Below are positions 47,981-55,649 of a stretch of 64,000 nucleotides of DNA, in pieces; positions within the stretch are counted from its first letter, which is position 1, and every line of letters starts with the position of its first letter. The notes under the pieces were generated by a model. It saw only the letters and a list, made by a program, of their open reading frames with translations. It made no database searches and was not told where the DNA came from. Both the position numbers and the translations under genes were made by a program. Source of the DNA: a bacterium (GTDB lineage Bacteria; Patescibacteriota; Minisyncoccia; UBA6257; WO2-44-18); assembly GCA_030646995.1 (NCBI GenBank), contig JAUSKF010000002.1, positions 76,092-140,091 on the forward strand, in the 5' to 3' direction.

Positions 47981-50290
47981 CTAAATTTCACAAACTCCTC
48001 CGGCACAAGCTGCTTCCTTCGCGCCCTTGGTTTCATCATCCTGCTCATAAAGCACGATATCAGCGAAGTTAATTTCCGGAAGCTTGGCCTTCAACTCCCG
48101 ATATTTTTCTTCAGCGGTTTTTACTACCACCATTTCTCCGGTTTTTTCATTCACGGCTACATCATCCATAATTTCCTCATAAGGAGATTGCACGTAAACG
48201 TTCTGCTCGGAGAAGAAAGCCAGACCACCCACCATATCCCAATTTTTCCTCACCCAATGCACTGCCTCAATCCACTCTTCGGGCTTGATGTAAATCGAAG
48301 CCGAGGGATTGTGCTCGGTATAATTCTCTTTAAGAATTTTCCAATAATCCAGCTGCTGCACGACATTTTTATCGCGGCGGGTAATTGCTCCCTCTGGAGC
48401 TTTGACCACGAAAGTAATCACATAATTCGCCAGAGCACCCGTGCTCTGATAAGCATCAGCTTCATACGGGTATTTCTGCTCTTTAAGCATCTCAAAAATC
48501 GGATCGGTCGCGGACAAACGAGTGCGGCGAAGGTAGTACTTAGCATAGCGGGTATGCAGGCCGGATGCCGAATTGACCAATTGGGAAACAGTTCCGGACG
48601 GCTTCACACAAGTGATTGCCGTCGACTGATTGATGCCAAATCGCTTGGCATATTCCTTATTAACCTCAACGGCCCTTTCCTTAAGCTTTCGCAAGGTCTC
48701 AGGATTACGCACGGCAGGGCAATCCCACTGACCGGTTAGAGAAACGCCAAGAAGGCGCTCTTCGTCACAATTCTCCTTCCACTCTTTGGACAGATATGGA
48801 AAATTAGTAAGGGTCGCCTGATAGGTGCCCATAATGGTCGCCAAGCGTACCTTTTCCAGCAAAGTTTCCTCGGTATCTTCCGCCCGACAAATAACCTCCG
48901 TAAGGTTACAAAACTGTTTGGACTTCAACACAATTTCACCACAAGGATTAGTGCCGCTAGTGGCGGCATCCTTCTCAAAAATTTTCCAGCGCCGAGGAGG
49001 CAGCTGATCTTTCAGGCCCGCCCGATTAAATATGCCCCGTTCACCGGTTCCGCCTTCAGCCAATTGCTGCCATTCTTTCATCAAAACGACGTCAGTCGGC
49101 TTAGAAGCGTAGGCAACCGAGTTGTTGGCCATATGCCGCTGTTTTTCATCTCTCTCCCAAAAACGCTTATCTTTAGCAACGCGCATTTCCAAATCATCAA
49201 GATTGGACAAAGAAAGCATCGCGCTACGACGCACACCTCCCATTTCTACAATCTCTCCGACCTTACAGGCAATATCATGCACATCAATCGGCTTCAATCG
49301 CCTGTCCTGCCGCTCCAAAACTTTGTCGCGGGCAAACTCCATCAATGCCTTCAATGGTCCGGGGCCGGAACTTCTTCCGCCCATGGTATGCAATCTCGCT
49401 CCCATCGGGCGCAGTTCAGAATAATCAACTTCCACGTCCTTACCGTCATACCAATGTCGCATGCACTTCACAAACGCATCCGCCCATCCTTCTTTGCTGT
49501 CTTCTACGACAATTTTTACCTTAGGCTTCCCGGTCTGACGCTTAATCTGCGGAAGTTTTTCAATACTCTGATACTCCACAGAAAAACCGACTCCGGTACC
49601 GCACATCGAGAGATACATGATTTCACCGAAATCCTGAAGCTCCGAAATGGCGATAAACGAACAATTGTATCCGGAAACGTTGGTGGATTCAGCTGCCCCG
49701 CCGGCGCTCCAGAAAAGCCGCATAGACGGCATAACTCGCATATTGAGAACCGCCTCTTTCAAATCACCATATTCTTGGTCGATCATCTTGTTGCCAAGAT
49801 TTTTAAACATGAAATCGAAGTAGCGTTGAACGCTTTCAATCCAAGTTTCACGCCTTCCTTCCGATTCTATCCATCTGGAATACCGGCTAAAAAAAATGTA
49901 CTCGCTAAAATCATCAGAAAAGAATTTTTTACTGTCAGCTACGAGCTGTTTAACTTTCTCGGGCACTTCTTTTTTCTTTTCCCGGACTTCGGCTCGTTTT
50001 TCCCGATAAAGAATGTAGGCCTTGGCGGTCTTGGTATAGTCCAAAAGCATCAAAGTGCGCTCAACGTAATTTTGAATCGTTTCGATATCCAAAATCTCCT
50101 TCGCGGAATGCTCTTTTTTAAGCGCTTTCAGCACCTTGTCGGAAACACGAGCAGCTTCCTCCTCGCCACCTTCTCCTGTGGCATTTAGCGCCTTAAAAAT
50201 AGCGCTGGTAATGCGGCTCTGCTCGAAATCGAGGATTGATCCGTCCCGCTTACGAACTTTGGTAAACATCGTAGTTTCTTTTTTCATCAC
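47981..50290 (-). CDS. nrdJ: class II (B12-dependent, monomeric RTPR-type) ribonucleotide reductase with ATP cone
   Basis: N-terminal ATP cone VRKRDG; GGVRRSA, TNPCGEI, TCVKPSGTVS; C-terminal CAGGVCE. Confidence 0.9.
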   Translation of the reverse strand: MMKKETTMFTKVRKRDGSILDFEQSRITSAIFKALNATGEGGEEEAARVSDKVLKALKKEHSAKEILDIETIQNYVERTLMLLDYTKTAKAYILYREKRAEVREKKKEVPEKVKQLVADSKKFFSDDFSEYIFFSRYSRWIESEGRRETWIESVQRYFDFMFKNLGNKMIDQEYGDLKEAVLNMRVMPSMRLFWSAGGAAESTNVSGYNCSFIAISELQDFGEIMYLSMCGTGVGFSVEYQSIEKLPQIKRQTGKPKVKIVVEDSKEGWADAFVKCMRHWYDGKDVEVDYSELRPMGARLHTMGGRSSGPGPLKALMEFARDKVLERQDRRLKPIDVHDIACKVGEIVEMGGVRRSAMLSLSNLDDLEMRVAKDKRFWERDEKQRHMANNSVAYASKPTDVVLMKEWQQLAEGGTGERGIFNRAGLKDQLPPRRWKIFEKDAATSGTNPCGEIVLKSKQFCNLTEVICRAEDTEETLLEKVRLATIMGTYQATLTNFPYLSKEWKENCDEERLLGVSLTGQWDCPAVRNPETLRKLKERAVEVNKEYAKRFGINQSTAITCVKPSGTVSQLVNSASGLHTRYAKYYLRRTRLSATDPIFEMLKEQKYPYEADAYQSTGALANYVITFVVKAPEGAITRRDKNVVQQLDYWKILKENYTEHNPSASIYIKPEEWIEAVHWVRKNWDMVGGLAFFSEQNVYVQSPYEEIMDDVAVNEKTGEMVVVKTAEEKYRELKAKLPEINFADIVLYEQDDETKGAKEAACAGGVCEI

Positions 50291-50532
50291 TGCTCCTTTG
50301 CTGGATTCGAATTATTAAACTGCTAAACGGAATTATACAGTTTGGGAACGAATTGGGCAACGAGTGATATCTAAATTTTTATATCTTCAGTCTACTCCCG
50401 CTTTTCAAGATTATAGAAGTGCATAAGTACTTTGTCGGTTGTTTTATCCCGCTACGCGGGATCCCGCCTTATTTATATTTAAAAATAGTGCGGCGGGACA
50501 AAATTCGGATTTCATGGTATCATCCAGGCAAT

Positions 50533-51240
50533 ATGGACAATGAAATTTTCCCGATGCGTCTCAATAAATATCTCGCTTGGAAAAAACTGGCTAGCCGCCG
50601 TGAAGCGGACAGGTTGATTTCAGACAAAAAAGTACTCATCAATGACAGGGTGGCGGTTTTGGGTGATAAAGTTTCAGAAAAAGACGTTGTAAAAATCATC
50701 GAAAGAAAGGGTAAAGAAGAACTTCCAAAATTAACCGTCGCACTAAACAAGCCACGCGGTTTGATTTCGGCCATTAATGAGAAGGGCGGCGAAACAATCT
50801 TTGATTATCTACCTCAATACAAACACCTCAACGCCGTCGGCCGGCTAGATAAAGAAAGCGAGGGTTTAATTCTGCTTTCCAACGATGGAGTTCTCACCGC
50901 CGTCGTTACCAGCGAAAAACATCTAATTGAAAAGGAATACGAGGTTCAGGTTTGGGAAAAAATTCAACCGTTGAGTCTTAGGCGCTTAGCGGAAGGCGTT
51001 CTACTGGATGGCAAAATGACTCTGCCGGCCGTAGTAGAGCAGCTAAATGACATGTCTTTTTCGATAGTTTTAAAAGAAGGACGCAAACATCAGATTCGCC
51101 GGATGGCCGCCGAGACACATCTGACAATTAAAAATTTGAAAAGAATTCGTATAGGGAAAATAACACTCAAAGAAATTGAAAAACCCGGCGAATATCGGGA
51201 ACTGAAGCCGGAAGAAGTAAATAAACTAAAAAACGCCTAA
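50533..51240 (+). CDS. RsuA/RluB/RluF-family pseudouridine synthase with S4 domain
   Basis: RLNKYLA...SRREAD, LNKPRG, GRLDKESEGL, EGRKHQIRRM. Confidence 0.93.
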   Translation: MDNEIFPMRLNKYLAWKKLASRREADRLISDKKVLINDRVAVLGDKVSEKDVVKIIERKGKEELPKLTVALNKPRGLISAINEKGGETIFDYLPQYKHLNAVGRLDKESEGLILLSNDGVLTAVVTSEKHLIEKEYEVQVWEKIQPLSLRRLAEGVLLDGKMTLPAVVEQLNDMSFSIVLKEGRKHQIRRMAAETHLTIKNLKRIRIGKITLKEIEKPGEYRELKPEEVNKLKNA

Positions 51241-51255
51241 GGCGGTTTTTAGTTT
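51223..51255. terminator. bidirectional terminator
   Basis: AAACTAAAAAACGCC-TAA-GGCGGTTTTTAGTTT. Confidence 0.65.
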
Positions 51256-51276
51256 TGGTGCCGCGGGAGGGAATCG
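51256..51276 (-). repeat. displaced duplicate of the tRNA-Phe 3' end carrying CCA (att-like)
   Basis: Minus strand CGATTCCCTCCCGCGGCACCA; 51258-51274 is identical to 51455-51471. Confidence 0.9.
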
Positions 51277-51413
51277 CCTACAACTCTCGCCTCGCCGTCG
51301 CTCGGTTCGGTCGCAGGCCGCCCCTCGCGACCCCGCAAGCTTGCGGGGTATCGCTGCGTTCTTCAATATCCCTACGCGAGCCAAACAATTGGCTCGCTCC
51401 CGCCGCTACAAAC

Positions 51414-51450
51414 AAAAAATAAAGCGCCTTTTCGTGGCGCTTTATTTTTC
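51414..51450 (-). terminator. terminator after tRNA-Phe
   Basis: AAAAATAAAGCGCC-TTTTCGT-GGCGCTTTATTTTT. Confidence 0.7.
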
Positions 51451-51455
51451 TGTTG

Positions 51456-51761
51456 TGCCGCGGGAGGGAATTGAACCCCCGACGCCAGCCTCTTCCAAAG
51501 GCTAGTTGGACTATCTCATTCCCGTTCTTAAAAACTTAAGAGTGCGGGATCGGGCGCTATTGCAGGATTATTGTTGGGACTCACCTGCTAGTCTCTACAC
51601 CTTCCAGAAAACTTAAACCCTTTCTGGCTCGGCTCGGGATTGTCGTATGCATATTTTACTATACATCCGGTTTTCCCCGAATTCACCCAATTTTTCGATC
51701 CGCATTACTACGGAAGGCCCCAAAGATCTAGGGCTGCGCTCTACCACTGAGCTACCGCGGC
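51456..51761 (-). tRNA. trnF: tRNA-Phe(GAA), intron-containing; exons 51761-51730 and 51495-51456
   Basis: Joined exons fold as a cloverleaf: GCCGCGG TA GCTC AGTGGTA GAGC G CAGCC CT GAA GA GGCTG GCGTC GGGGG TTCAATT CCCTC CCGCGGC A. Confidence 0.93.
51496..51729 (-). ncRNA. group I self-splicing intron (234 nt) at tRNA position 33/34
   Basis: Follows U33 and ends in G; P AATTCGGGGAA, Q AATCCCGAGC, R GTAGAGACTA, S ATGAGATAGTCC; P1 GCCCU/GGGGC, P3 TTGGGTG/CGCCCGA, P7 GACTA/TAGTC. Confidence 0.92.
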
Positions 51762-51764
51762 ATA

Positions 51765-52469
51765 CTAACTAAAATTGTGGTTCTTAACGCCATCTATCCA
51801 GCCAATTATGCGATGGAATAGCTTGGTATCACTTATTCTAACCTGCAAAACCCCATAAGGCAAGCGATTAAATGGCCTCTTTCCCATACTGGATTTACTA
51901 ATTCCAAGATAGGTTTTATTAAAGTTCTCCCTGGGAATACCGGTTGTCTTAACCCAATACTTCAGGGTCGCCTCAGCATTCATATGTTGAAAAATTCTTA
52001 AATTGGCTTTTATTTTCTCGACCGGTACTTTACAAATCTTTTTAATAAACGCCAAGAAGACATTGATTAAAACCGGATCAGCATTAGTAAGACTAATGGG
52101 GTGATATGTGACTTCCCTTCCACCTCTCACAATCGGCCGCTTATACCCCTCCGCCCAGTACAACGCCAAACCGATAAAAAATAGATTCTGAATAGAGATA
52201 TTTGCAATCTCGCCGTGCGCTAATTTCTGGATTTCTTCTTTTCTTTGCAGAGCCAAATGAGTTTGATTTTTATTTCTTTTCAAAAGGCCTTCCAACGATT
52301 TTTGTTTGGACCGATTCTCAATTTTTTCCCTTGCACTCGCGGATAAAACTATGTTTTTCAACCATAGCGACAAAGTAGACTTAGAAATACCAGGCAAGGT
52401 TTTCTGGATTTCGCTATAACTCTTGCCCTGCAACCGTAGCTTAATGGCCGAGAATTTATCATTACGCAT
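51765..52469 (-). CDS. HTH plus LAGLIDADG-like homing-endonuclease-fold protein
   Basis: N-terminal HTH (GKSYSEI...ISKSTLSLW); IGLALYWAEG helix followed by ISLTNADP..I. Confidence 0.75.
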   Translation of the reverse strand: MRNDKFSAIKLRLQGKSYSEIQKTLPGISKSTLSLWLKNIVLSASAREKIENRSKQKSLEGLLKRNKNQTHLALQRKEEIQKLAHGEIANISIQNLFFIGLALYWAEGYKRPIVRGGREVTYHPISLTNADPVLINVFLAFIKKICKVPVEKIKANLRIFQHMNAEATLKYWVKTTGIPRENFNKTYLGISKSSMGKRPFNRLPYGVLQVRISDTKLFHRIIGWIDGVKNHNFS

Positions 52470-52597
52470 TATATATATCATAGCGCCGTCGTTCGATTAT
52501 ATCAACCCTCCCGCGACACAAAAATCAATAAATAAAAATCCCCGCCACTATGCCATAGCATAGTGGCGGATATAAAAAACAGGCCCTAGGGCCTGTT

Positions 52598-55411: not shown

Positions 55412-55484
55412 GGTCTCATCGTCTAGTTGGTCAGGACATACGGTTCTCATCCGTAAAACATGGGTTCGAATCCCATTGGGACCA
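55412..55484 (+). tRNA. trnE: tRNA-Glu(CTC), no encoded CCA
   Basis: Acceptor GGTCTCA/TGGGACC, anticodon arm TACGG-TTCTCAT-CCGTA, T arm ATGGG-TTCGAAT-CCCAT. Confidence 0.95.
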
Positions 55485-55630
55485 CAAAACTCAAAATAAA
55501 TCTGGGATTCGAACCCAGCAGCACACCGTGTTGGAAGGCGCTCGGAAACCAGAAGGTGTCCGAGACGGGGGTCGGGGTGCTGCGATAGTGGTTCGGCAAA
55601 CATTAGGCGGCAGCCTCAATGCGCAGCGAA

Positions 55631-55649
55631 AATCCCATTGGGACCACCA
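55631..55649 (+). repeat. displaced duplicate of the tRNA-Glu 3' end carrying CCA (att-like)
   Basis: AATCCCATTGGGACCACCA; 55631-55647 is identical to 55469-55485. Confidence 0.9.

Follow-up and report, generated by a model that had tools for sequence, protein, structure and literature searches.

A tRNA-linked repeat unit with host-matched ends behind an intron-bearing tRNA-Phe gene of a Patescibacteriota genome

The window analyzed here is a stretch of 64,000 nucleotides from a genome of the Patescibacteriota (G000; 751 kb, 97.8% complete, 47 tRNA calls). On its minus strand, a tRNA-Phe(GAA) gene is split by a group I intron and followed by a gene-less insert of 197 bases. Behind the gene come, in this order, a hairpin resembling a terminator, the acceptor 3' strand in inverted copy, a hairpin called H1, an inverted T arm, a G+C-rich core, and the tRNA end in direct copy. 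In this copy, positions 58-74 are followed by CA; a second hairpin comes next. The features, in window coordinates, are as follows.

51761-51455, minus strand: whole tRNA-Phe(GAA) gene
51730-51761, minus strand: 5' exon, up to U33
51496-51729, minus strand: group I intron, 234 nt, ORF-less, after U33 (ARAGORN i(33,234); Rfam Intron_gpI)
51455-51495, minus strand: 3' exon, without an encoded CCA
51455-51471, minus strand: first copy of the 17-bp repeat (tRNA positions 58-74), within the 3' exon
51414-51449, minus strand: first terminator-like hairpin, the tip of a longer fold-back reaching into the tRNA end
51398-51406, minus strand: inverted copy of the acceptor 3' strand (about positions 72-64), with one mismatch
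51376-51397, minus strand: H1, a palindromic 22-nt GCGAGCC hairpin that bulges out between the two pieces of the inverted copy
51362-51373, minus strand: inverted T stem and loop (positions 64-54), with one inserted T, following the host A57
51277-51361, minus strand: family C core, a three-way junction
51330-51349, minus strand: variable arm H2 of the core, a palindrome
51284-51310, minus strand: variable arm H3 of the core
51311-51317 with 51277-51283, minus strand: conserved closing helix of the core
51256-51276, minus strand: direct copy of the tRNA end, with C56, G57 (A in the host), identical positions 58-74, and then CA, giving CCA
51258-51274, minus strand: second copy of the 17-bp repeat
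51224-51254, minus strand: second terminator-like hairpin, overlapping the end of a convergent pseudouridine synthase gene

The downstream tRNA-end fragment had the same orientation as the gene. It read CCA at 51258-51256, where the tRNA-Phe gene itself reads CAA. The insert region had a folding z score of -8.0 against 200 shuffles. An independently assembled contig of run X1, a run that may be the source data, covered 50000-51482 with zero differences. The direct repeat, the CCA, the palindromes, the inverted T arm, and both hairpins described by the original prediction were all located. The inverted T loop that it had placed in the spacer was present with a 1-nt insertion, but it was longer than claimed, going on as the anti-acceptor piece at 51398-51406. 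The two hairpins exist as well, but neither was called a terminator by a consensus terminator scan, so that the label rests on their look, a G+C stem and a T run. An Rfam search of the spacer gave only weak, terminator-driven matches (sraL and STnc420).

The intron was absent from the original prediction. Its match to the Rfam Intron_gpI model scored 41.4 bits (E 3.6e-8) and so fell short of the gathering score, 50. Because it splits the gene, ARAGORN run without introns misses tRNA-Phe. A group I intron after U33 of tRNA-Phe(GAA), noted also for L018, L021, L024, L026, L040, and L108, was found in some relatives and was absent in others. Another intron-containing call, the ARAGORN "tRNA-Thr(tgt)" at G000:C1:7779-8103 (-), is likely the otherwise-missing tRNA-Asn(GTT), split inside the anticodon after GT. 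The LYWAEG gene (51765-52481, minus strand) ends 3 bases before the intron-bearing tRNA-Phe. Its protein has a helix-turn-helix and a domain weakly like LAGLIDADG homing endonucleases. The top rows of VIA-align were two homing-endonuclease entries with Z scores of 6.4 and 6.3, below the tool's trust level, and Foldseek gave no match to the fold at E <= 0.001. At 26 of 33 family loci, a same-strand tRNA started within about 115 bases downstream of the gene. The six closest homologues (55-62%) all preceded an intron-bearing tRNA, called Phe in five cases. LYWAEG is likely a free-standing homing nuclease that travels with the group I intron and has no tie to the 3' insert.

Within the genome, the layout was present at 11 of the 47 tRNAs, with nine exact downstream copies of at least 14 nt and two interrupted copies. 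Among 2,060 non-cognate control pairs, only seven reached 14 nt, and all seven were neighbouring real tRNA genes. The downstream copies are thus not due to chance. Nine tRNAs and the tmRNA shared a common core, family A, to which the sister insert behind tRNA-Glu(CTC) in the window belongs:

55412-55485, plus strand: tRNA-Glu(CTC) gene
55486-55649, plus strand: insert behind tRNA-Glu(CTC), with a family A core
55503-55517, plus strand: inverted T arm of this insert
55631-55647, plus strand: direct copy of the tRNA end, followed by CA

The family C core of the Phe insert occurred once in the genome and was unrelated to the family A core. The spacers of the Phe and Glu inserts were indeed unrelated, as first proposed (local score, 16; shuffled mean, 16.4). 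A third sequence, family B, was found behind Arg(gcg) and Arg(tct) and also behind one protein-coding gene. The family B repeat has inverted ends of its own, and one copy directly follows a protein-coding stop codon (G000:C1:173282-173438 (-); C3:46347; C6:52110). Several other arrangements were seen. At tRNA-Trp (G000:C4:166618-166825 (+)) there was a longer, imperfect tandem copy, comprising positions 50-76 and about 27 flanking bases, with no recognisable core, and Leu(taa) had an inverted T arm with neither core nor direct copy. One 14-base palindrome had 20 copies in the genome. Short palindromic hairpins were inserted in direct copies or arms, often after positions 60-62 (L012, L034, L038, L052, L059, and L130).

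We then examined family C in relatives. Of the 64 parts of genome_contigs, 48 contained matches to an 18-base pattern of the core, in 118 stretches altogether. A core end was found for 78 of 119 matches, and 63 of these had an ARAGORN gene upstream; the remaining matches were mostly either longer-armed cores or chance hits in G+C-rich genomes. With a covariance model made from 32 elements, 34 of 150 relatives were positive (0 to 12 copies overall, 1 to 12 in positive genomes), and three of four congeners had no copy. All 17 fetched loci outside the training alignment shared the layout; in 15 of them a called tRNA stood immediately upstream, and in the other 2 another unit did. Seventy-nine unique elements had both anchors, and 70 with a host T arm and full flank were retained; the Phe element of the window, which differs from the anchor pattern at a single base, is outside this set. 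The hosts of the 70 elements were tRNAs of 29 anticodon types for 15 amino acids, 2 tmRNAs, and 4 uncalled genes. The core was 73-179 nt long, and the unit measured 117-199 nt in 60 of the 70. No long, ORF-carrying version was found among them. Family C cores or core matches also turned up in records titled Elusimicrobia and in one titled Nanoarchaeota (L075, L077, L169, and L131), where transfer or a binning error is possible.

To our knowledge, sequence-specific integrases would not allow one element at 29 tRNA types. This host range of a single core, the small size of the unit, and the host-matched inverted copy (see below), which would be left unexplained, make it most improbable that the insert is what remains of a genomic island of a tyrosine integrase, cut down to its attachment arms. 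The sole tyrosine recombinase of the genome is Xer-like (303 aa) and lies on another contig. In favor of such a relic, a tRNA gene with a displaced 3' fragment is the signature of an island, T-loop and junction sites are common (PMC4383910), and the downstream copy resembles the original gene end.

Occupancy of the sites was patchy. In 11 genomes of the same family, the tRNA-Phe site was empty in nine, held a family C insert in G005, and held a B-type insert in G003. The tRNA-Glu(CTC) site was empty in G003, the sole one of five genomes where the gene was found. In G005, the cores behind Gly, Ile, and Met were nearly identical over the last 50-odd bases. The patchiness could also stem from losses, with the direct repeats recombining, instead of from gains. 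An exact search of viral contigs with a single pattern, the core 18-mer, gave no match. Neither a circle nor an empty joint between repeats was seen in three contig runs, in which rare forms are dropped, so that absence cannot be read from them.

The ends of the units followed the host gene. Over the 70 elements, the direct copy matched its own host at positions 57, 59, and 64 in 93, 96, and 81% of cases, against 62, 34, and 26% with shuffled hosts. The corresponding values for the inverted copy were 86, 99, and 71% against 55, 36, and 27%. Position 55 on the direct side was never host-like and always core-derived, whereas later positions were host-matched. Therefore, the junction of family C lies at 55/56. 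Where the host had A57, the direct copy had A in 15 of 18 cases and the inverted copy in 17 of 18. The Phe locus is one of the three exceptions in the direct copy (G57), and for this reason its repeat appears to begin at position 58. In family A (n = 47), copies started at position 57 (4), 58 (17), 59 (12), or 62 (2), or could not be placed (12). The right end varied too: of 51 non-tandem elements, 15, a few of which may be tandem remnants, had a repeat reaching at least 8 nt beyond position 73, against 2 of 2,550 control pairs. A common layout at T loops, with shared spacer families and boundaries that were neither random nor absent, was thus borne out, but an identical 58-74 interval as a fixed rule was not, since family C joins at 55/56 and other copies start at 57-59. 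Given the variable ends on both sides, the equal intervals at Phe and Glu are a coincidence of two loci.

Constant hairpins stood within these host-matched ends. A clear H1 was found in 33 of the 70 family C elements, and in 27 of these it was 10-11 nt away from anti-56. The 7 nt before H1 paired with the acceptor strand of the same host at a mean of 5.1 of 7 positions, against 3.9 for shuffled hosts (maximum, 4.4 in 1,000 shuffles; 33 elements). In family A, a constant hairpin separates an internal GTTC-N motif from the direct copy; the N was A in 5 of 5 A57 hosts (about three of them independent) and G in 41 of 42 G57 hosts. Because host-matched letters flank constant hairpins, one copying pass is insufficient; either correction or selection must act on the pairing between the inverted arm and the direct one. 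Host matching across constant hairpins would also follow from long-term selection on an RNA structure. The direct copies were often broken by small insertions.

CCA was encoded in 13 of 125 genes with a copy, in 31 of the 125 copies, and in 37 of 220 copy-less genes. Among discordant pairs, 20 had CCA in the copy and not in the gene, and 2 had the reverse. In the 38 cases where the repeat breaks at position 75, CCA was found in 19 copies. A null based on flank composition gave 3.8 expected; a null based on real gene ends, as if the copy were an ordinary gene end, gave 15.8. CCA was therefore dropped as proof of a mature-tRNA template. In one case, C74-C75 of the downstream copy was also present in the empty Glu allele of the congener G003. 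These data are most simply read as follows: the original gene end survives as the downstream copy, and the working end was made anew. The CCA excess in the copies may instead stem from a mature-tRNA template or from selection on the RNA end.

A more specific version of the former is reverse transcription of a mature tRNA end (18 nt up to m1A58, with CCA) beside the core, like a retroviral primer-binding site. The 20-to-2 gain of CCA, the many family A copies that begin at positions 58-59, and the two reverse transcriptase genes in the genome would fit this process. We consider it very improbable, since the CCA excess is equally accounted for by an original gene end, family C copies begin at positions 56-57 and often run into the genomic flank, and reverse transcriptase genes did not co-occur with the elements (see below). 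A retro-element with a tRNA primer-binding copy was likewise rejected: copies confined to positions 59-76 with CCA, together with a linked reverse transcriptase, were not found. The two reverse transcriptases (G000:C1:54375-55616 (-) and C4:102857-103867 (+)) are closely related to each other, and from their motifs we take them to be DGR-like.

The core has a conserved structure. In the 32-row alignment, two-sided changes occurred in 21 of 35 named pairs, and 88% of cells were paired, against 35-44% when the structure was slid. RNAalifold, on its own structure, gave 15 of 27 pairs with a two-sided change. Conserved G-U pairs were also seen in this alignment. The tRNA-sense strand folded better than the other strand in 70 of 70 elements. 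Since this was the case with RNA and DNA parameters alike, the preference cannot choose between RNA and DNA. Among 150 arm loops on the sense strand, 50 were of the types GNA (16), GNYA (20), or GNRA (14), compared with 0 of 149 on the other strand, and none was UUCG. Of the 50, 36 were GNA or GNYA, fitting DNA mini-hairpins. GCGNAGC and GCGNNAGC are described as unusually stable as DNA, while the RNA counterpart tested melts much lower (PMC13037366). The loop types thus favour DNA, with the reservation that these loops come from a few recurring arm types and that the arms at the Phe locus have neither a GNA nor a GNNA loop. In a predicted fold, the unit between the repeats would form a single rod when circular.

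These structures bear on the proposal that the insert is a functional RNA trailer, in which read-through would give a tRNA-like RNA with its inverted arm paired to the direct copy and an NCCA end, cut out by tRNA-processing enzymes to serve as a small RNA or a decoy like E. coli RrA/B/F, its cores spreading by gene conversion. Folding of the transcribed strand in 70 of 70 elements and the conserved G-U pairs speak for it. So do CCA ends, commoner in copies than in copy-less genes (31/125 versus 37/220; p 0.015), and the E. coli tRNA-linked repeats (TLRs) associated with 5S genes, which are transcribed, processed, and bound by Hfq and CsrA (PMC8144298). We nevertheless regard an RNA trailer as unlikely: most tRNA-Phe sites in the family are empty, cores are interchangeable, UUCG is absent from the arms, GNA and GNYA loops outnumber GNRA, 94 of 125 copies lack a CCA end, and small insertions often break the direct copies.

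We also looked for a partner enzyme in 150 genomes, comparing the 50 that have family A or C with the other 100. G115 was dropped from one count, its match being limited to the palindrome. Reverse transcriptases were found in 27 of 50 element-bearing and 45 of 100 other genomes, Y1 transposases in 17 of 50 and 26 of 100, and LYWAEG in 22 of 50 and 43 of 100. The HUH (Y1) and LYWAEG partners suggested at the outset were thus no commoner in element-bearing genomes, and the same held for reverse transcriptases. These tests are blunt because kin are not independent and because family B and weak cores were not counted as elements. The genome of the window has no Y1 transposase (PF01797); it has four LYWAEG genes and five small GIY-YIG genes. 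Small GIY-YIG nucleases were rejected as informative partners: they are near-universal (48/50 versus 86/100, p 0.09), and none was found at E <= 1e-9 in G125 or G043, which have 12 and 5 cores, respectively. Small GIY-YIG genes do adjoin tRNAs, at G000:C2:97319-97531 (+), between a hairpin-interrupted partial tRNA-Glu and an intact tRNA-Glu(TTC), at C6:8080-8289 (-), and directly upstream of the putative tRNA-Asn(GTT).

Taken together, one core stands behind many tRNAs, its ends match each host, sites are filled or empty, and the structure covaries and is strand specific. The explanation we prefer, with roughly even confidence, is that the insert, a tRNA-linked repeat unit, is a non-autonomous mobile element that acts as folded single-stranded DNA at the T loop, its ends being copied from each new host. 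Against mobility stand the lack of association with reverse transcriptase, Y1 transposase, or LYWAEG, of any ORF-carrying version, and of a match in viral contigs. The chemistry of insertion that we infer for such an element would run in four steps. First, the tRNA-sense strand would be cut in the T loop (at 55/56 for family C), and the 3' end of the core would be joined to the original gene end, which would become the downstream copy. Second, the upstream gene end would be re-made by copying. Third, synthesis would fold back at the next hairpin, either the terminator or one right after ACCA, and copy the gene end backwards; this backward copy would be the inverted arm and would meet the 5' end of the core. 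Fourth, pairing of the inverted and direct arms in the folded rod would overwrite the few old positions that lie past the bulged hairpins, which are constant. This step is needed because the host-matched letters on both sides of these hairpins exceed one copying round. A putative nicking enzyme would have to recognise structure rather than sequence.

A mobile element would not be required if a replication template switch between the terminator hairpin and the T arm made a tiny direct-inverted-direct triplication, in which hairpin repeats lodged, and if gene conversion spread the cores among units already present. Such a switch would account for the order of copy, inverted copy, and copy centred on natural hairpins, for the lack of a co-occurring enzyme, and for the inverted T arm of Leu(taa), and template-switch models for inverted triplications have been outlined (PMC4689423). 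A simple fold-back, however, would leave a single T loop where the strand turns, whereas each of the two arms flanking the core has positions 56-60; moreover, the junctions are base-precise and family specific, and the length and register of H1 are fixed. Template switching without dedicated mobility is thus distinctly unlikely.

A broader extension of the mobile-element reading is possible, but we hold it only tentatively: the units would make up a class of self-retargeting single-stranded DNA elements without genes. An enzyme specific for structure, either of the host or an orphan, would join the folded core into any T loop, copy-back would write a host-specific guide arm, and the same process would have made the E. 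coli TLRs. If the inserts are mobile, they represent an unknown insertion chemistry at tRNA genes; if the self-retargeting class exists, it would amount to a programmable, sequence-independent DNA insertion at RNA-gene ends. In practice, such repeats, like the intron, conceal tRNA genes from calling programs or mislead them.

TLRs have been known since 1978, and the accessible part of PMC8144298 assigns them neither function nor origin. It describes them in E. coli as carrying an 18-19-bp copy of the 3' end of the upstream gene. The E. coli TLRs (the 178-bp tyrT/tyrV units, rttR, RF00391; rrA/B/F) resemble the Phe insert in that a short non-coding unit lies directly behind the tRNA gene and ends in a copy of the gene 3' end. 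TLRs lie directly downstream of a tRNA or rRNA gene. So does the Phe insert, and its copy has 17 identical bp, one short of the stated length, or 18 of 19 over positions 58-76. In K-12 tyrT, all four units had an inverted copy of the T-arm 3' strand, a feature shared with window positions 51362-51406, a direct copy from A58, and GNA triloops. Tandem arrays are a further shared trait, but the E. coli core is not detectably related to family C. The RF00391 model gave 0 matches at E <= 1 in the genome, with a positive E. coli control, the family C model gave no match at E. coli tyrT, and blastn against 5,426 E. coli genomes gave only a hairpin-level match (E 3). The junction at 55/56, the bulged H1, the several exchangeable core families, and the patchy occupancy set the Phe-type inserts apart. 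A literature search found no description of these inserts or of the inverted arm; Rudd 1999, Egan and Landy 1978, and Williams 2002 are known to us from citations only, so that the inverted arm may already be in print. The Patescibacteriota-type genomes studied add what is missing in E. coli: several families of cores, host genes by the dozen, and alleles both empty and filled. They also make several constraints testable: a junction set by the core (55/56), ends rewritten per host across constant hairpins, a downstream copy that looks original, and DNA-type loops on one strand.

Other known systems share single features with the Phe insert. REP/REPIN sequences with their RAYT (Y1 HUH) are, like it, short hairpin DNA with strand-specific folding and no coding capacity. 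The Phe insert differs in that no PF01797 gene is present in its genome, no co-occurrence was seen, and the family C core is single-copy and tied to a gene end. CTXphi attP and integron attC are folded single-strand attachment sites with a fixed target and a known recombinase. The inverted and direct copies of the Phe-type unit may, as the predicted fold and covariation suggest, pair into a bulged, double-stranded mimic of the target, but its target part varies at every tRNA, with 29 different tRNA ends in place of one fixed target. Islands made by tRNA-targeted integrases (Islander) also combine a regenerated gene with a displaced 3' fragment (PMC4383910). In contrast, the Phe insert has neither an integrase nor any gene, measures about 0.2 kb (Islander rejects <2 kb), places one core at many tRNA types, and carries an inverted, host-matched copy. 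The Phe insert is thus not an RtT, an integrase island, or a REP-RAYT element; by its architecture, whose layout was already known from E. coli, it is a TLR with a different core.
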